Shown: one piece after another, positions 875-57,602 of the stretch
Numbering within the stretch: the stretch's first letter is position 1
Layout: every line of letters starts with the position of its first letter
IMG/VR virus record: IMGVR_UViG_3300023283_000076
Coordinates: 1 to 64,000 of that record
Source: a virus
Lineage: Duplodnaviria; Caudoviricetes
Reading direction: 5' to 3' (one strand)
Length of the DNA: 64,000 bases
Notes under the pieces: model-generated
What the model saw: the letters and a program-made list of their open reading frames with translations, nothing else
The model's database searches: none
Told to the model about the DNA's origin: nothing
Position numbers and translations under genes: made by a program

Positions 875-2731
875 AAGAAGCTTGACAATCCCCTTCAACA
901 ATTGCTGTAATACTAATCGTAAATTATATAACTAATAATTTTTAAAATAAAGAAAAATATAATAAACACTACCTCTCTTAAAAACTGTGTGCTAAACGCT
1001 AAAATAAAAAATATTCGTGTTACACATCACGCATACAATAGATTCTTGGAACGCTTAGTAGTAAAGCATCTTCCAAATATATGTGGAATTCAATCATTTC
1101 AGAAAAGTTAAAGAAGGAAGAATTTGTGACAAATGGGAACAATCACCGTTCTGTGTGAATAGAAACTTTACACGTTACGGTAAATTCGTTGTAGCGAATA
1201 ATGGACCATGTTTCTTTATCTGTAAAGTAAAAAATAATTCAAAAATTATAGTAGCTACAGTAGTAGCAAAGTGGTATAACGAAAAATGTGTCTGGTGAAA
1301 CTTAATTCCACAGACTATTGAAATGCTCTTTTAAATATGTAGTTGCTGCAGATATGTGCTCAGATGTTATACCTTTTTTCGTAGGGCATTATTTAAACGC
1401 AATCCTTCTATATAAGCTTCAAGCATATTCGCTGTTCTCAGATTTTCCGACCCCTCTTGATGATAGTCCCTCTATTGCATCTCAGTTTCTTCCATCCTCT
1501 AGCTCAGACCAATCTACCATATCATATAAATTAACTGAAAACGTATTGTTTTTAAGTGTAGTACTAATACGATCTATCAAATTGGAAGACTCCTTCTTAG
1601 GATCATTATCAGAAGCTTTCTTAGAATCACTGTTAGAAGATTTAGCAGATAACTTATTATCTAAACCACTAATATCCTCGGCTGGTTTATCACATCAAAT
1701 AAAACTTTCATATAATAATTATACAAATTTATAGACTGATTTTTAACATCTTTCAATATTTTTATAGTATAAGTCATACCAGATAAAAACTCTGAGAAAA
1801 AAATTTCGATAATATGTAAACCCTTATATAAAAGACCCCCCCCCTTTCATATATACAAAACCGAAACTTGTATTCTGTGTAGCAGAATCAATGCCAAAAC
1901 ATTGTATTGTGTTTATACAATAAAATTGTGTCTATCAATATTCATGAAAAACAGCCACAACTTATGAAAAACGATCACAAATTATTATAAATCGTGAAAA
2001 ATCCTACCAAATGATAAAAAATAATAATAAAAAATAAAAAAGGGTCTAATATTCTCCTGTAGGACTAATCAAAATTTTCGAGACACTTTCTATATAAAAA
2101 AGTGGTCAATATTTGCTCAATTGCTTAGCACGGCCCGTACGCCCCTGTCAACTGTATGAATATACAGAAGAAAAAAAATCCCAAACTTGTTTTCAGTTTT
2201 TCTATATGGTGTTTATGGTACTGTATATATCTCCACTGTATAGTTATACATCACATCTTATTGAAGTGCATTCGATAATCTTTCAACCATTGATACTCTA
2301 ACGGTGAGAGTTCTTTCATGGTATCATGATGAGTAACTCTCTCTTCAAGATCATTCCATTCCATTTGTTGATGTTGCAATGAATCATTCATCTTCATACC
2401 TGTTTAGTTTGCTTAGGCTGTAGTCTATATTATACAGACACTTTTCGGATTGTCAATTACTTTCCAAGTGATCTATAGCGCCATAACATAGCAGATCGAA
2501 CCACTTTGTCGCATTGGTCATTGTAATGAATATGATATGCTAGTTTGGTTTGCGTTGCAGTTTTGAAGCGAACGTGGTATCGCTGATAAGAGAGTCTACC
2601 AAATCGGTTTCGCTCTGAATGATATCGGAATTGTATTTGATTTCTAATGTTTCAGTGAATGCGAGTATATAGTACCATGCACCATAGCGTTTAGTCAAGC
2701 GGATATAGAATAAAGTTGTAATTGAAAATTC

Positions 2732-2775
2732 TTGACAAATGGTTGATGATGAGTTAAAGGGTCTAAAGTAGGATA
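2732..2775 (+). promoter_or_regulatory. TTGACA-N17-TAAAGG-..CTA..TAGGA element (first of 13 copies)
   Basis: Exact 17-nt spacer; recurs across the window (see findings). Confidence 0.75.
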
Positions 2776-2806
2776 AAAAAAGAGGATGCGAATGATTCGC
2801 ATCCTC
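2775..2806 (-). terminator. intrinsic terminator of ardC
   Basis: GAGGATGCGAA-tga-TTCGCATCCTC 11-bp stem followed by a U-run on the minus strand; near-identical copy at about 3870-3899. Confidence 0.8.
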
Positions 2807-2825
2807 AATGGTACCTAATGATTAA

Positions 2826-3713
2826 TCAAGCGGCTTGCGCTTGATACTGTTCGGTTTCACCTGCTTCGCCTTCGATCAGGTAATCCGCTACCTTGCTTGC
2901 CTTGCTGGCGATATGCATCAGGCATTCAGGCTGTTCACGAAGCGCTGTGAGCCAGCTCTTCACATACTTTGCATGGTCCATGCGGGTAGTGACATCAATG
3001 CCCATACGAACGCCCACAATGGCTGCTGTAAGTTCTGCTAGCAGTTCTTCCAAAGCATATGCATTGCTTCCGAACCGGGTTGAAAGATTGCGGTCCAGTC
3101 GTGAAGCATGACCCGTCCAATGCGCCAGTTCATGGAATGCGGTCTGATAGTATGAATCCGCATCATGGAAGGCGTTGAATTCAGGAAGCAGGATGCGGTC
3201 ATGGCTTGGAATGTAACAGGCCATATTGCCGCCATGCTGGATTTCAGCGCCTGTTGCTGCGATCATTGCGTCGCATTCAGCGTGAATTTCATTTGTTGAA
3301 AGGGTAGGACGATCTTCCAGTGTCGGAGCGGTCCAGCCGTCAACTTGATCGGCATTGAATACGTTCGAGAATCGCAGGAAGGGAACCTTTTCAGGATTGC
3401 CGTTAGCGTCGAATCGAGTCTTGGAATCGATGATTTTCCAGAAAACAACCAATGAACCTTTTGATCCTTTCTTGACCGTGGCATCAATCGACTTCCATTG
3501 CTTAAAGGTAGCCCAATACGGAGATGAGAATCCAGCGCTCCACAATGAGAAGATATTGAAACCACGGTATGTCTTTTTTGTCACTGCATTGGTCGGAAAG
3601 TCTGTGGCAAACTTCGCCCATGGAGCAGTCCATTTACCATCCGCCATGCCTGCTTCGATTTGGTCTATAAAAGCTTGCGCTACAATCTTGTGAATCTTTT
3701 GATTTCCGTTCAT
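2826..3713 (-). CDS. ardC: ArdC-family antirestriction/ssDNA-binding protein (DUF1738 plus zincin-like domain)
   Basis: YRGFN, WATFKQW, VKKG.KG, FNADQ, HELAHWTGH..RLDR and YALEEL.AE motifs. Confidence 0.9.
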   Translation of the reverse strand: MNGNQKIHKIVAQAFIDQIEAGMADGKWTAPWAKFATDFPTNAVTKKTYRGFNIFSLWSAGFSSPYWATFKQWKSIDATVKKGSKGSLVVFWKIIDSKTRFDANGNPEKVPFLRFSNVFNADQVDGWTAPTLEDRPTLSTNEIHAECDAMIAATGAEIQHGGNMACYIPSHDRILLPEFNAFHDADSYYQTAFHELAHWTGHASRLDRNLSTRFGSNAYALEELLAELTAAIVGVRMGIDVTTRMDHAKYVKSWLTALREQPECLMHIASKASKVADYLIEGEAGETEQYQAQAA

Positions 3714-4910: not shown

Positions 4911-5645
4911 CTAGGTTAGGCTCAATTCTCTCATTGCCTTGCTGTAGTAGGCTTGAGCGGTGCCTGTCTTGGCTCCAAGTTCATTAACGATGCGTTCGAT
5001 CATTTCAGCACGATAAGCGGCCGGGTTAGTTTCAATCAATGCCTTGATCTTGTCATAGATACCTGAATTCTTACGGCCACGCCTACCGATCTTCGGGAGG
5101 TTGAGTTCATTGCGTGCCTTGCTGTAGTACACTTTAGCAGTGGACTCGTTAACGTCGGGCTTTGATTTTTTCACCATATCGAGAATTTCGTTAGGTGTTG
5201 CCTTCATGTTGCTTTCGACAAGTGAAAGAATCAATGGATACAAGCTAGCATCACGTTTTCGAGTTTTGGCGACCTTGGTGGTATTTTCTGTATCATCAAT
5301 ATCATCGTTTTCGACTACTGTATCAGCGCGAGTAGATGAACCTGTAGAAAGAGATTCAGCGAGTTTTGCAGCGTCTTGACGGGCAGCGTCAATATCTTCT
5401 TGAGTGATACTGGTACGGTCCTGCTCAAACGCCCTTACCAGTGCATATTGCAGCGTGTAATGATGCATCCTTTCATTGCAGCCATCAAGGCCGATTGGCT
5501 TGTTGTTAGTAAACTCTTCAAGTATGGGCCATAGTGATGCAGGGTTTTCTTCTTTGAGCACCCTGACCAGTTTCGTACTCTTGTCGTTGGCAGTGATGTT
5601 CACGCCATGATTCCGGAAAATTTCAACGATTTCTTGACTTGGCAT
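4911..5645 (-). CDS. putative DNA-binding protein with two tandem HTH-like units; paralogue of 12033..12746
   Basis: Repeated TAKVYYSKARNEL / TAQAYYSKAMREL units after an acidic linker. Confidence 0.65.
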   Translation of the reverse strand: MPSQEIVEIFRNHGVNITANDKSTKLVRVLKEENPASLWPILEEFTNNKPIGLDGCNERMHHYTLQYALVRAFEQDRTSITQEDIDAARQDAAKLAESLSTGSSTRADTVVENDDIDDTENTTKVAKTRKRDASLYPLILSLVESNMKATPNEILDMVKKSKPDVNESTAKVYYSKARNELNLPKIGRRGRKNSGIYDKIKALIETNPAAYRAEMIERIVNELGAKTGTAQAYYSKAMRELSLT

Positions 5646-23082: not shown

Positions 23083-23337
23083 ATGAAAATTGAAGATCAA
23101 AAGAAAATGCATGAACTCTATGCACATTACTGGATGGCTATGGCCACTACTGTTCGTGAAAGTACTTCTAATGATGAACCTTTGACAGAAGATATGCTAA
23201 ACGCTGCATTAGAGTATATTCATATGTTTAAAGAATGTGCAGAAAATCAACAAATAGAAGAAGAACCAGATTTCAGTGTAAAAGCGCCGCCAATAGAGTA
23301 CTATAAAGGAGAGGACCAGTCTTGTTTTATGGGGTGA
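23083..23337 (+). CDS. hypothetical protein
   Basis: GAGG RBS. Confidence 0.6.
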   Translation: MKIEDQKKMHELYAHYWMAMATTVRESTSNDEPLTEDMLNAALEYIHMFKECAENQQIEEEPDFSVKAPPIEYYKGEDQSCFMG

Positions 23338-23409
23338 ATGATGGGACTCGAACCCATAATACGTGTCTGTTTTGGAGTCACGCGCGTCTACCAGTTCCGC
23401 CACACCCAC
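23330..23409 (-). tRNA. pseudo-tRNA (Leu-like body, CCA/CAA anticodon)
   Basis: Acceptor, D and T arms intact; anticodon stem broken by a ~4-nt insertion. Confidence 0.6.
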
Positions 23410-33487: not shown

Positions 33488-33566
33488 TGGTGGGTCCGGT
33501 TGGATTTGAACCAACAGTCTCGATCCTTATGAGGGATGTGTTTTGACCTGATTAAACTACGGACCC
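33488..33566 (-). tRNA. tRNA with CAU anticodon (Met or lysidine-modified Ile2)
   Basis: Cloverleaf, CT-CAT-AA loop, CCA; not initiator-like. Confidence 0.88.
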
Positions 33567-34944: not shown

Positions 34945-35220
34945 TCAATTACTATCCACCACTTCTCTTATGTTAAATAACATACGGTAAAACATGATAG
35001 CTGTAATAAATCCGGTTGCAGTTAGTTTTACATATTCTTCTCCTAGATAAAAATTAACACCCAAACCGATGCCTATCAGAAACAATACATAGAAATATAT
35101 TACTAAAGCCCCGCTGGATGCGGTTTTTTCAAATGCCGCCGATACAACATACAACAAGAACCCTAGCACCGACATTCCTATTATTGCTATAATGCTATGC
35201 TGTCCGATGAATTCTATCAT
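34945..35220 (-). CDS. three-TM membrane protein
   Basis: Hydrophobic stretches. Confidence 0.6.
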   Translation of the reverse strand: MIEFIGQHSIIAIIGMSVLGFLLYVVSAAFEKTASSGALVIYFYVLFLIGIGLGVNFYLGEEYVKLTATGFITAIMFYRMLFNIREVVDSN

Positions 35221-35815
35221 AACGATCCTTTACCATTCTGTATATCATTTTATGAATACCCGGATTCACTTTCAATACCTCCGGGACGATGCTGTGTCGT
35301 ATTTGATTACGCATATAATTACAATCATTATTCGATGGATCATTAATATATTCTACCTCATGTGTATTAGCATAGTCAACGATTGCTTGCTTTTTAGTTA
35401 ACAAAAATGGCCGAATCACATTTGCTCGGTTATATTGAATTGTTTTAGGCTTTCCGTTAAATGTAGAAAATAACCATGTTTCCAAACAATCATCTAAATG
35501 ATGAGCAGTAACAATCGGAATATTGAAGCTTTCCAAAAATGTATAACGTAAATTTCTCCATGTCTCTTCTTTATTATTCGATACATGAAAATCATATTTA
35601 CCATCTACATTTGTACAAAACTCTAATCCTCTATACATAGATTGTTCTTTTACGAATTCTAATGCATAGGGAGAATGTTCAGTACCATGATTCACATGCA
35701 CCACAATAATATCTCTTTTTCCCTTGAGCAAGAAATCTAGAGCAACCATAGAATCGATTCCACCTGATACAGCCACTCCAATTTTCTGAGGAACTTTCCC
35801 AAGTAAGTTAATCAT
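35195..35815 (-). CDS. tilS: tRNA(Ile)-lysidine synthetase, N-terminal catalytic domain only
   Basis: AVSGGIDS PP-loop, HVNHG, TAHHLDD.LET, IRPFL and DPSN...RNQIRH. Confidence 0.9.
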   Translation of the reverse strand: MINLLGKVPQKIGVAVSGGIDSMVALDFLLKGKRDIIVVHVNHGTEHSPYALEFVKEQSMYRGLEFCTNVDGKYDFHVSNNKEETWRNLRYTFLESFNIPIVTAHHLDDCLETWLFSTFNGKPKTIQYNRANVIRPFLLTKKQAIVDYANTHEVEYINDPSNNDCNYMRNQIRHSIVPEVLKVNPGIHKMIYRMVKDRYDRIHRTA

Positions 35816-43477: not shown

Positions 43478-43882
43478 TCAAATCTCCTCAAAATAAACAT
43501 ACAATCCATTTCGGTTAATAGATAATACAATAAAACAATGCTCTTTTGTCAAATGAATAGAAAGATCATAGATTTCTACTTCGGTATCTACTTCCCATCC
43601 ATTTTCACATAATACATTGAATAAGATATCCAATCTTTTAATTAAATTCTTAATGGTTCGATTGTTGGAAAGATAAGTGTCTGACTCTATAAATGAAAAT
43701 CCATCACCGGGATAGGATTTTTCATTATTGCTTGTATAATTTGAAACAAATCTTTCATCCATACCTGTGATATTTGTAATGAATGTTTTAACTTCGTTTG
43801 CAAGTTCGGTTTTTCGTTTACTGTGTGTATTATTCATGATAGTAAGAATACCATAGATTGAGGTTAAAGTAAATAACAGCAT
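43478..43882 (-). CDS. hypothetical protein; paralogue of 57261..57602
   Basis: Shared LFNVLCENGWEVDTE. Confidence 0.7.
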   Translation of the reverse strand: MLLFTLTSIYGILTIMNNTHSKRKTELANEVKTFITNITGMDERFVSNYTSNNEKSYPGDGFSFIESDTYLSNNRTIKNLIKRLDILFNVLCENGWEVDTEVEIYDLSIHLTKEHCFIVLSINRNGLYVYFEEI

Positions 43883-43899
43883 GAGATTATTGCTACAAA

Positions 43900-44075
43900 T
43901 TGATCGCCTTTCGTCGCCGTACCCATAATTTTCCTATTATGGTTAACTCCTTATCCAGATAAACCAAGTGCAAAACACTTGCGAATACCTATCGATCAAG
44001 CAGTGCCATCTTGTAAAGTTGGAAGCTTTCACCTTCTGGAGCAAATGACTGATTCGATTACTCACTATCCAACTT
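43900..44075 (-). ncRNA. short version of the structured RNA locus at 56282-57215
   Basis: Promoter plus two conserved stem-closed domains; lacks the 737-nt central block. Confidence 0.55.
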
Positions 44076-44142
44076 GGAAACCATCCTAACGCTTTATTTA
44101 TTCTTTGTCAACACTCTTTTCAATTTTTTCTCTCAATACATA

Positions 44143-48323: not shown

Positions 48324-49544
48324 TTAATTATATTCCGTTGCATTTTTTCTGTTCAAATAATCATCAGAAATAGATTTTAAAATCAATCGACCAATAGTAG
48401 TATCAGGAATTTCATATTCAAGAGGTTTAATTACAGCACCTTCCCGAATGTGAGTTCCTGTGATCGAATCCTTTCCATCAGTATATTGCCCTATTGTGCC
48501 ATAAAAAATTGGCCCACGATAAAGCTCTGGAACAGTTTCAATTCCAAATCCTTCCATAACTTTAAGCATGTTTTTGTATGGAAGATATTTACCCTTTCCG
48601 GGTTCGCCTATATAAACATCAAATACTCTGAAATTGGTTTCATTCAACCCATAATCTAAATCTTGAACAGCTTTTCCATATATTTCGCCAATGATATATA
48701 TCGGCTTATTTACTGACGCATCTTCTTTGAGACTTTCCGCTACTTCATAAATATCAAACCGCTCATGAAATTTCTTGAAGGCTTTCATATACAAATTGTT
48801 TGTATTAGCTTCATTATCCTTGAAAGCTAACCCCTTTGAAGAAAGTCCCTTTGAAGTTACAATACAATTAGTATACGGAATTTCTTCGTGAACAGGGTGC
48901 TCTTGCACTCGCTCTCCATTAACATAATAATAATTAGGCCATACACCAAAACAACACCATGTGCCATGAAGCTTTTCTGTAATAACACATTGAATACCTA
49001 AAACCTCTAATGCTTGCTCATATTGAGGATGATTCTTGATATTTTCAATATCATACTTCAAAGTCTTACCAGAAAGATTACAAACCTCACCACTCATCTG
49101 TGTAGGAATTTCAGGTTCCCATTTTACAATATATAAAAATTGAGAAACATCTGTCCCAATATCTTCTTCACCTACAGACATGGCTTCTTCCATACCATAT
49201 TCATTACACAAAATACCATCAACAATAGGATATAATAACCCTAAACTCGTCTCTCCACGAAGCTTAACAGCCTTTACACGATTACCTCTAGAACCAGCTA
49301 GTTTACCAATGCCCTTCTCTACATCCCATAAGTTCATGTCTTCTAAAATGTATCGAGGAACAAGAGTTTGCTCAGGAATGTATACAACAAGATCACCTTC
49401 ATTAAATTGACCCTTTTTAACAATACATTGATATCCCAATACATCAGCAAACTCTAATGCATCTGCATTAGGATGTGGACGAATCCTTTCGATTTTTTCA
49501 ATTGTCGCTTTTCTATCTGCCATATAGTTAACTCGCTTTTTCAA
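48324..49544 (-). CDS. RNA ligase, DRB0094 (Rnl2-like) family
   Basis: HPNADALE..V.GYQ.IV.KG OB domain, ITEKLHGT, GEIYG, FRVFD, REG.VIK and LKSIS..YL. Confidence 0.88.
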   Translation of the reverse strand: MKKRVNYMADRKATIEKIERIRPHPNADALEFADVLGYQCIVKKGQFNEGDLVVYIPEQTLVPRYILEDMNLWDVEKGIGKLAGSRGNRVKAVKLRGETSLGLLYPIVDGILCNEYGMEEAMSVGEEDIGTDVSQFLYIVKWEPEIPTQMSGEVCNLSGKTLKYDIENIKNHPQYEQALEVLGIQCVITEKLHGTWCCFGVWPNYYYVNGERVQEHPVHEEIPYTNCIVTSKGLSSKGLAFKDNEANTNNLYMKAFKKFHERFDIYEVAESLKEDASVNKPIYIIGEIYGKAVQDLDYGLNETNFRVFDVYIGEPGKGKYLPYKNMLKVMEGFGIETVPELYRGPIFYGTIGQYTDGKDSITGTHIREGAVIKPLEYEIPDTTIGRLILKSISDDYLNRKNATEYN

Positions 49545-50655
49545 ACCATGGTATTTCTAATTCGTTAAATCTCTTAAGCTGTCCGTCATCATAATATTCA
49601 ATTTTATTTTTATATTCATATCCATCAGAATCTTTACGATGAATCAAATTATTATTCGAATCAAATTCTTTCCAATATTCATATCCATCAGAACTTTTAC
49701 AATGAATCAAATTATTATTCGAATCATATTCTTTCCAATATTCAACTTCATCGGAACTTTTATAATGAATCAAATTATTATTCGAATCATATTCTTGCCA
49801 ATATTGAAATCCATTAGAATTCTTATAATGAATTACATTATTATTGGAATCAAATTCTTGCCAATATTCATATCCATCAGAATTCTTATAATGAATCAAA
49901 CTATTATTGGAATCATATTTTTTCCAATATTCAACTTCACCAGAATTCTTATAATGAATCAAATTATTATTCGAATCAAATTCTTGCCAATATTCATGCC
50001 CATCAGAGTGGTTATAATGAATTAAATTATTATTGGAATCATATTTTCTCCAAGATTCTATACCATCAGAATTCTTAAAATGAATTAAATTATTATTGGA
50101 ATCATATTTTCTCCAAGATTCTATACCATCAGAATTCTTAAAATGAATTACATTATTATTCGAATCAAATTCTTGCCAATATTGAAATCCATCAGAATCT
50201 TTATGATGAGTCAAATTATTATTCGAATCAAATTCTTGCCAATATTCATGCCCATCAGAATCTTTACGATGAATCAAATTATTATTCGAATCAAATTCTT
50301 TCCAATATTCATATCCATCAGAACTTTTACAATGAATCAAATTATTATTCGAATCATATTCTTTCCAATATTGAAATCCATTAGAATTCTTATAATGAAT
50401 CAAATTATTATTGGAATCATATTTTTTCCAAGATTCTATACCATCAGAATTCTGATAATAAATCAAATTATTATTCGAATCAAATTCAATGCTATCTTTA
50501 TTATTCTTTAACCACCTGACATAATCTTTATGATCACCGTTAACTTGATCTAATAACTCAAGCGGAAATCCAATAAGATTATTATTTTTTACAAATTCAA
50601 CAGCACTAGTACATGCATCGCGTTCATTTAAAAATTTTTCAGTTAATGTATTCAT
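49528..50655 (-). CDS. protein with 14 tandem 21-aa repeats (YD-like)
   Basis: [YF]DSNNNLIH.K.SDG.EYW.E unit (63 bp). Confidence 0.85.
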   Translation of the reverse strand: MNTLTEKFLNERDACTSAVEFVKNNNLIGFPLELLDQVNGDHKDYVRWLKNNKDSIEFDSNNNLIYYQNSDGIESWKKYDSNNNLIHYKNSNGFQYWKEYDSNNNLIHCKSSDGYEYWKEFDSNNNLIHRKDSDGHEYWQEFDSNNNLTHHKDSDGFQYWQEFDSNNNVIHFKNSDGIESWRKYDSNNNLIHFKNSDGIESWRKYDSNNNLIHYNHSDGHEYWQEFDSNNNLIHYKNSGEVEYWKKYDSNNSLIHYKNSDGYEYWQEFDSNNNVIHYKNSNGFQYWQEYDSNNNLIHYKSSDEVEYWKEYDSNNNLIHCKSSDGYEYWKEFDSNNNLIHRKDSDGYEYKNKIEYYDDGQLKRFNELEIPWFEKAS

Positions 50656-55955: not shown

Positions 55956-56213
55956 ATGGAAGAATGGAACATGACTGATATTATAAGTGGCGTAATCGAA
56001 GAACGTGGTAATGGTTTGCCTAGTGTTGATGATTATGCCTATCACAGCTTGACTAACACGGTCTACCGAATTGTTAACACTGGTTGTATTGTTACAGGAC
56101 GTGTTGGGCAGGGTAATTTAATGCATGTAAAACTAGAAGAATATGGTGATCCGTTTGATTTGACAGATGAACAATTTGATGATATTGTATGGGCTTTACA
56201 TTTAGAAGAATAG
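55956..56213 (+). CDS. hypothetical protein; paralogue of 44143..44415
   Basis: Protein similarity. Confidence 0.75.
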   Translation: MEEWNMTDIISGVIEERGNGLPSVDDYAYHSLTNTVYRIVNTGCIVTGRVGQGNLMHVKLEEYGDPFDLTDEQFDDIVWALHLEE

Positions 56214-56281
56214 TAAGTATTGACAGAAAAAAGTTGAAAAAAGTGTTGACAAAGAATAAATAAAGCGTTAGAATGGTTTCC

Positions 56282-57215
56282 AAGTTGGAGACAGAGAGTA
56301 ACTGAACCATATGATCCATAGTCATTTTCTCCGGTTGCTCTAGCGTAAATGTCTCCAACTTTTAATTAAGAAAAAAGAAGTACAGTTTTGGGCATGACCG
56401 TGATAGCTCATTGAAAGATGGGTAACGGGAAAGGTGCTACCCACCTTCCCGCCTAGAGAAATTTAGGTTGAGTCATGCAAGCCGAGACTCTGGAAAATTC
56501 GTCCATAATAATTCAGGCGGATTTCAGACGAAACGGGATGGTAGGTTAGACCGAGGCCAACTGGTAAGGTCGTTCTAAGGTGACGCTTAGTACCTACATG
56601 TCAACATCTTGAGCGTTGGAGAGTCAAAGGGTAGTTATTTGGTGTGAGTCTTAGCGGATAAATGCTGAATAGCAATGTTAACGGTGAGCTAAACCTTATC
56701 GTGAAACATGGTCGAAAGTAATCTTAGCGGATGAAACGGCAAACGGTGTTGTCATATTTCGTACCTCAAAAGGGTATGAAGTGATGGAGACGGCACATCG
56801 TTAGGTAGTTTGCAGTCTTTGTAGCTCAATAGGTAGAGCTACCGCCTTATAAGCGGTTTGTTGTAGGTTCAAGTCCTACCAAAGACCCATAATAGATAAC
56901 TGGGTTTAAAATGCAAAAGTCCGTCTCGGTAAAAGGTGAGCAAGGTAGTTAAGTCTACACTGCGAAAGCAGAATGTAGAATCTTTGAGGGCCGCAAGCTT
57001 GATAAGATTTGGTTAGAAGCGCACGTCGAGGGCCGTACAACCTTCGGGGGAAGCTGAAAGCCGAGTAGCCTTTTATGACAGCGCAAACGCTAGCGCTTTA
57101 CAAGACAGCACTACTTGATCGATAGATATTCGCAAGTGTTTTGCGCTTGGTTTATCTGGATAAGAAGTTAACTTTAGGTTTGCAGCCTGAAGGTACGGCG
57201 ACGAAAGGCGATCAA
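56282..57215 (+). ncRNA. large structured RNA locus, GOLLD-like candidate, with embedded tRNA
   Basis: About 930 nt without a credible ORF, dense hairpins, TTGACA-N17-TAGAAT promoter at about 56246-56274. Confidence 0.6.
56815..56889 (+). tRNA. tRNA-Ile(UAU)
   Basis: Cloverleaf, CT-TAT-AA loop; 3' end reads GAC-CCA, so the discriminator base appears missing. Confidence 0.85.
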
Positions 57216-57260
57216 TTTGTAGCAATAATCTCATGCTGCTATTTACTTTAACCTCAACAT

Positions 57261-57602
57261 ATGGTACTCTTAGTCATGGATAATTTACTCGATAGACAAA
57301 AGAATGATCTTGCAAACGAAATTACAACATTCATTACAAATATTACAGGAGTAGCTGTAGAACCTAATCCGAATGAAGGATTTGAATTTGTAGAGTACAG
57401 GAATTTTATTCCTAACAAACGATCAATTAATAATTCAATTAAAGAATTCAATATTCTATTTAATGTGCTATGTGAAAACGGATGGGAAGTAGATACTGAA
57501 ATAGAAGATTTTGATCTCGCTATCCATTTAACTAAAGCTCATTGTTTTGTTACTTTATCTATTTGTCGAAATGGATTACATGTTTTTTTTGAAGAGATTT
57601 GA
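57261..57602 (+). CDS. hypothetical protein; paralogue of 43478..43882
   Basis: Protein similarity. Confidence 0.7.
   Translation: MVLLVMDNLLDRQKNDLANEITTFITNITGVAVEPNPNEGFEFVEYRNFIPNKRSINNSIKEFNILFNVLCENGWEVDTEIEDFDLAIHLTKAHCFVTLSICRNGLHVFFEEI

Follow-up and report, generated by a model that had tools for sequence, protein, structure and literature searches.

What is the ~930-nt stretch that surrounds a tRNA-Ile(UAU) gene in a tRNA-rich phage genome, and why is it intact in only one arm of a large inverted duplication? The DNA analysed here (the window) comprises the first 64 kb (64,000 nt) of a 270,653-bp IMG/VR virus record with an estimated completeness of 79% (CheckV), 34.5% G+C and 48 tRNA genes. 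The tRNA-Ile locus belongs to the right arm of the duplication. By DNA identity, the duplication pairs 38.2–46.6 kb with 51.8–63.9 kb in matching pieces that are 73–95% identical; by tRNA content, it pairs ~16–46.5 kb of the window with ~51.8–82.4 kb of the genome, both arms carrying sets for Lys(UUU), Tyr-Pro-Arg, Leu (three genes), Met(CAU) and Val-Thr in mirror order. Since the tRNA sets are duplicated as well, the duplication is far larger than the 8–12 kb visible by DNA identity. Two other features of the window stood out. Between the arms, positions 49496–50614 hold 14 tandem copies of a 63-nt unit (64–100% identity), which, given that a unit of this length would preserve the reading frame, may encode a repeat protein. 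At 23330–23409 on the minus strand, an 80-nt gene is called as tRNA-Phe with its anticodon, AAA, at position 37; this is unusual, and the gene may contain an insert or be a miscall.

The locus was also found in public sequencing data: a 1,291-nt contig covering 55931–57221 with zero differences was present in each of two public DNA runs, which may come from the source sample itself. As paralogous contigs map to both arms, differences in contig depth between the arms are uninterpretable. None of the RNA runs searched for the locus contains its sequence; one of them (X8) shares 7% of sampled words and matches the window only at 49033–49614, outside the locus.

Sequence analysis points to a single non-coding transcription unit of ~960 nt, related to the GOLLD family of large phage RNAs, in which a promoter is followed by an 80-nt leader hairpin, a GOLLD 5′ domain, the P14 hairpin, a linker harbouring the tRNA, and a GOLLD 3′ domain:

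56246..56274, plus strand: sigma-70-like promoter (TTGACA-17-TAGAAT, 11/12 matches)
56282..56362, plus strand: leader hairpin (12-bp closing stem, 10-bp inner stem and 5-bp tip, then UUUUAAUU)
56385..56743, plus strand: GOLLD 5′ domain, subtype of tRNA-bearing GOLLDs (nhmmer homology to L123, L026, L092, L124 and others; alignment; covariation)
56744..56805, plus strand: P14 hairpin with UCAAAAG loop (the Rfam GOLLD model starts here; alignment)
56806..56912, plus strand: variable linker joining P14 to the GCAAAAGUC/P15 motif (insertion relative to the Rfam model)
56815..56888, plus strand: tRNA-Ile, anticodon UAU (ARAGORN; Rfam 56815–56887, 71.6 bits)
56913..57240, plus strand: GOLLD 3′ domain, P15 pseudoknot through P27 hairpin (UAAUCUCA loop) (Rfam RF02032; 32/37 subgroup consensus pairs)

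A search of 56282–57250 returned no ORF longer than 53 aa, and the next gene begins with an ATG at 57261. Together with the 11/12 promoter match, this bears out a preliminary description of the locus, made from the letters alone, which had proposed a consensus promoter followed by ~930 nt free of credible ORFs. The two hairpins named in that description (one with a UCAAAA loop, the other CTGC-gaaa-GCAG) are both found in the sequence, and the tRNA-Ile(UAU) that it had placed at 56815–56889 is indeed embedded in the unit, with its end at 56888 according to ARAGORN. In the left arm, the counterpart of the promoter reads TTGACA-17-TAGGAT.

The leader hairpin of the right arm is predicted to be stable (−31.4 kcal/mol, z −6.8). 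It matched no Rfam family, its sequence is present only in the two arms, and it lies outside the conserved GOLLD core, at approximately the site occupied in several relatives by an upstream tRNA that ends 329–485 nt before P14. Its near-continuous helix of ~22 bp would suit RNase III, and the leader might conceivably play a role in setting the 5′ end of the GOLLD RNA.

Rfam family RF02032, which models the conserved 3′ domain of GOLLD, matched 56744–57237 over its full length (model positions 1–416 of 416; 114.6 bits, E 4.1e-31), the only such match in the 270-kb record. The score falls below the family's gathering threshold of 150 bits, which is a curation convention, and below those of all eight relatives tested (159–190 bits); at Rfam gathering thresholds the tRNAs alone are reported, and GOLLD appears with E-value reporting. 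The shortfall arises because helices have diverged and not because domains are missing: the conserved motifs UCAAAAG, GCAAAAGUC, GAGUAG, UGGAUAAG and UAAUCUCA are all present, the P15 pseudoknot retains 9 of 10 pairs in the Rfam alignment, and the P24–P27 junction is in place. Two departures concern the 3′ domain itself. A hairpin with a conserved UUAGCG loop, kept in the other aligned members, is without its 5′ strand of ~18 nt in the window copy (at ~57018–57030), and mismatches affect the outer P26 stem in both arms. Given these two features, cage assembly may be altered or lost; should the UUAGCG loop mediate contacts between subunits, cages of a different copy number could result.

The window copy thus resembles GOLLD (RF02032) in its full-length 3′-domain match, P14 loop, P15 pseudoknot and P24–P27 junction, as well as in having a separate, less conserved 5′ domain, a variable inter-domain linker and a location in a phage genome rich in tRNA genes. 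It differs in its sub-threshold score, in the hairpin strand missing midway along the 3′ domain, and in the promoter-proximal leader hairpin. With ROOL, the other phage RNA that forms cages and occurs near tRNA islands, it has in common a large size, an ornate fold, a phage genome, the vicinity of tRNAs and, in ROOL, a disordered internal linker, but the two are unrelated in sequence and fold, and the Rfam ROOL model gave no match in 56100–57400 at E-values up to 10.

The 5′ domain lies upstream of the Rfam model and was examined through its relatives. A pattern scan of IMG/VR returned 119 loci, ~20 of which were chance matches; a profile filter and removal of near-duplicates left 55 distinct GOLLD loci, and L123, the closest relative, and L124 were added with a second pattern, derived from the 5′ domain. 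Iterated nhmmer searches linked the window 5′ domain (~56385–56743) by homology to its counterpart in 12 IMG/VR GOLLDs, in one of them (L086) over part of its length, while the remaining loci resemble this domain only over the last ~50 nt before P14. Eight of the 12 relatives were scanned with Rfam; all of them pass the cut-off, and each has a tRNA or tRNA remnant in its linker. A blastn search of the GOLLD unit against 50,697 GenBank phages yielded matches of tRNA length only.

Covariation among these sequences was strong. For the 5′ domain and P14, RNAalifold (12 sequences) predicted 44 pairs, 35 of which show compensatory changes; 93.4% of alignment cells can pair, compared with 37–46% when partners are slid by 1–3 columns, and none of 500 shuffles reached the observed values. 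Helices 5 and 6 of the alignment, which belong to P14, are 93–95% paired and likewise contain compensatory changes. Downstream of the tRNA, covariation is seen at 34 of the 37 predicted pairs. The window copy itself forms 40/44 and 32/37 of the consensus pairs (72/81 overall), within the ranges of its relatives (28–44 and 27–36), which argues that it is divergent and not obviously broken. Taken with the Rfam match and the homology of the 5′ domain, this settles the earlier wording of "GOLLD-class RNA or new relative" in favour of its first half: as judged by these comparisons, the stretch is a divergent copy of the known GOLLD family and not a new class.

Alternatively, the right-arm GOLLD could be a decaying relic in which selection acts on the tRNA only, the RNA around it having lost the ability to fold or assemble. 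The sub-threshold score, the lost hairpin strand and the mismatched P26 would fit such decay, as would the deletion of the other copy without apparent harm and the possibility, discussed below, that a TilS route makes the unit dispensable. Yet the 72/81 pairs are kept at a level seen in relatives that pass the Rfam cut-off, every conserved loop motif is intact, and the P15 pseudoknot is nearly complete, so that we regard a relic as very unlikely.

Turning to the tRNA within this divergent GOLLD, the module has a perfect 7-bp acceptor stem with G at position 1, does not encode CCA, and obtains the second-best tRNA score within the window (71.6 bits). Its assignment to Ile is read from the anticodon alone, the discriminator base being C. 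It occupies +72 to +145 nt from the start of P14, that is, the linker inserted between P14 and P15. An ARAGORN tRNA starting 60–72 nt after the P14 start occurs at 9 of 56 distinct loci (window included), in a common slot that spans +60 to +145 nt. No two of these loci share an anticodon: they have Ile UAU, Pro UGG, Gln UUG, Arg UCU, Asn GUU, Leu CAA and CUA, the other two having 8-nt anticodon loops. Two further linkers contain tRNA remnants, one without an acceptor stem (L086) and one reduced to the T arm and CCA end (L085), and another two are AT-rich and tRNA-sized. All 13 loci fall into the subgroup defined by the 5′ domain of the window. The tRNA modules of several relatives score lower in Rfam (43–63 bits), and their acceptor stems are imperfect.

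Some of these linker tRNAs are unusual in their own right. The module with a CUA anticodon (L046:6492–6564, plus strand; GOLLD score 184.7 bits), labelled "Pyl" by ARAGORN, would be an amber suppressor. The two with 8-nt anticodon loops (L124:6719–6794, and L076 at ~5296–5366; UUGA and UUUG, respectively) may be quadruplet decoders or non-decoding mimics. The L124 contig additionally encodes a permuted two-piece tmRNA at 2657–3016 on the plus strand (RF04321, 108.9 bits; beta_tmRNA, 92.5 bits).

A tRNA in the GOLLD linker has been reported before (PMC12286853, PMC12990946, PMC6582537), so that the embedded tRNA as such adds little novelty. The variable linker between the two GOLLD domains is disordered and faces the interior of the cage, and phage tRNAs are sometimes located there (PMC12286853). 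A tRNA-Phe in a Mycolicibacterium GOLLD gave rise to the idea of "inhibited storage" (Morgado 2020, as cited in PMC12990946), and the linker of the M. aubagnense GOLLD contains a pseudo-tRNA whose expression was not detectable (PMC6582537). The window copy has in common with both a tRNA-shaped module in a single-stranded P14–P15 linker. Unlike the M. aubagnense pseudo-tRNA, its module is a canonical, high-scoring tRNA whose acceptor stem is perfect and whose anticodon is UAU; a limited literature search found no earlier report of Ile(UAU) as GOLLD cargo.

In ORFs of at least 200 aa, AUA accounts for 49% of Ile codons, more than any other, and for 36 per 1,000 codons overall; the embedded tRNA is the only one with a UAU anticodon among the 48 tRNAs of the record. 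We considered the embedded tRNA as the sole AUA decoder of the phage and dropped this idea in view of TilS-like genes that lie near CAU tRNAs in both arms:

window 35195–35815, minus strand: TilS N-domain gene, left arm (TIGR02432)
genome 66241–66732, plus strand: TilS N-domain gene, other arm (TIGR02432)

Each arm encodes a protein of ~206 aa that matches TilS in its N-terminal catalytic domain only (TIGR02432, 118 bits against a cut-off of 93.6), and the CAU tRNAs at 33488–33566 and 70109–70185 are ~1.6–3.4 kb from these genes. Judging from these matches, the phage possibly has a lysidine pathway of its own to decode AUA, present in duplicate.

What, then, became of the left-arm copy? Alignment of the arms and a dedicated covariance model delimit both the missing block and what is retained:

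56363..57099, plus strand: 737-nt block missing from the left-arm copy (arm alignment; 4-nt CTTT microhomology at its bounds)
43877..44017, minus strand: left-arm remnant of the GOLLD 3′-terminal domain, comprising part of P23 followed by P24–P27 (model R1, 36.2 bits, E 3.5e-5, full model length)
44019..44111, minus strand: left-arm promoter (44111–44083) and shortened leader hairpin (~44075–44019; −14.4 kcal/mol, z −1.6)

Read as the reverse complement of ~44127–43843, the left arm retains the promoter, the leader and the sequence from 57100 on, running from CCAACTTT into ACAAG and so directly into the right-arm sequence after 57099. Its junction, CCAACTTTACAAG, is reproduced by removing 56363–57099 or the same frame shifted left by up to 4 nt. 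The preliminary description had the left arm lacking exactly 56364–57100: the length of 737 nt stands, whereas the junction fits 56363–57099. It had also described a flanking 5-bp repeat, CTTTA; positions 56359–56363 read CTTTT, and the shared repeat is therefore 4 nt, CTTT (56359–62 and 57096–99). Finally, it had placed the element in one arm only, which holds for the intact unit, present in the right arm alone, but not for the promoter, leader and GOLLD 3′ end that the left arm retains.

That the retained sequence is GOLLD emerged from model R1, a covariance model of the terminal domain (P25–P27 with flanks) built from 54 other GOLLDs, with the window left out. Across the 64-kb window it gave two full-length matches, at 57097–57238 on the plus strand (34.5 bits) and at 43877–44017 on the minus strand (36.2 bits); the next match reached 16 bits (E 0.33). 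An Rfam scan of the left arm showed no GOLLD match, and nhmmer with a 3′-domain profile also missed the remnant, which was thus detected only by the dedicated model. As R1 matches only the right 3′ end and the left remnant, we conclude that the left copy lost these 737 nt through deletion. A 4-nt microhomology fits slippage or illegitimate recombination; it would be expected by chance at roughly 2–3% of random junctions (an estimate, not a computed value) and is for this reason only mild evidence on the mechanism.

The same data bear on an opposite reading, in which the 737-nt block is a mobile module that was inserted into the right arm with a short target duplication, the left arm representing the empty site. 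In line with such an event, the block has a short direct repeat at its two ends, of which one copy is found in the left arm; moreover, a related 350-kb phage (L121/G001, complete by CheckV) is without GOLLD, implying that the RNA has been gained or lost within the lineage. However, the repeat is a mere 4 nt, the block contains no ORF longer than 53 aa, and no terminal inverted repeats were noted on reading its two ends, all of which sets it apart from a transposable module with target-site duplication. Furthermore, the 3′ edge of the block (57096–57099) cuts into the GOLLD 3′ domain, within a hairpin at Rfam model positions ~308–330, so that the block is not the self-contained gain/loss module that had been proposed earlier. 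Above all, a complete GOLLD terminal domain is present at the site taken to be empty, scoring as well as that of the intact copy (36.2 versus 34.5 bits), which an insertion could not create. For practical purposes this excludes insertion with target duplication, to which we assign next to no probability, and leaves the other mechanism envisaged earlier, a microhomology deletion, as the one that fits, at CTTT. The 350-kb phage has one neighbouring gene in common with the locus and, being without GOLLD, provides no outgroup for deciding which arm state is older.

The promoter, leader and P24–P27 left behind might be more than debris, namely a small RNA or 5′ UTR element maintained for its function, and some features would suit this: the remnant is 92–95% identical to 57096–57272, two stem substitutions preserve pairing (A-U to G-U and G-U to A-U), and the inner P26 hairpin is wholly replaced and nonetheless forms a perfect 7-bp stem. 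On the other hand, the arms, compared in 80-nt windows, reach 85% identity at the median and 94% at the 90th percentile, so that the identity of the remnant is high but not exceptional; just two stem changes are informative; P14 and P23, the partners of L26 and L27, are absent from the left arm; and it may be for the downstream genes that the promoter and 3′ flank have been conserved. On balance, we consider retention of function unlikely. The GGAAA loop of the remnant was also considered as a more canonical L26 and rejected, the inner hairpin being variable in the subgroup alignment.

Collectively, we consider it highly probable that the locus is one non-coding unit consisting of a divergent GOLLD of ~855 nt (~56385–57240) with a tRNA-Ile(UAU) in its P14–P15 linker, and that its left-arm copy is core-deleted. 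On this reading, both arms descend from an intact unit of promoter, leader and GOLLD. The left copy then lost, in one deletion at the CTTT microhomology, the 5′ domain, P14 and the tRNA together with most of the post-leader spacer and most of the 3′ domain, leaving the promoter, leader and P24–P27 ahead of the downstream genes.

GOLLD structures have been solved as cages, namely a 14-mer for env-38 (PDB 9MEE, PMC12286853) and a 12-mer for the Streptococcus agalactiae RNA (9L0R, as reviewed in PMC12990946). By homology with these structures, the window copy should form a homo-oligomeric cage of 10–14 copies that would be capped by the 5′ domains, with the linker and hence the tRNA pointing inward. 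The tRNA could be freed by RNase P together with 3′ processing enzymes, which would split the GOLLD into two halves. Given that AUA makes up nearly half of the Ile codons of the phage, the most likely role of the RNA, by inference, would be that of a scaffold storing, protecting or timing the supply of an AUA-reading tRNA.

Among the sampled loci, the window-type 5′ domain is always paired with a tRNA-sized linker, whose cargo differs from member to member and in some consists of tRNA remnants only. We suggest, tentatively and as a possibility that we ourselves rate as rather doubtful, that in this GOLLD subgroup the linker serves as an exchangeable slot for a limiting tRNA and the cage as a regulated depot that times its release. 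If so, the tRNA released here would read AUA, the commonest Ile codon of the phage. As a discovery, the locus adds one member and comparative detail to a described family. It also offers a natural test case, combining a canonical cargo tRNA, a core-deleted paralogue in the same genome as a built-in control, and relatives with other tRNAs, and this combination makes the idea of a tRNA depot directly testable.
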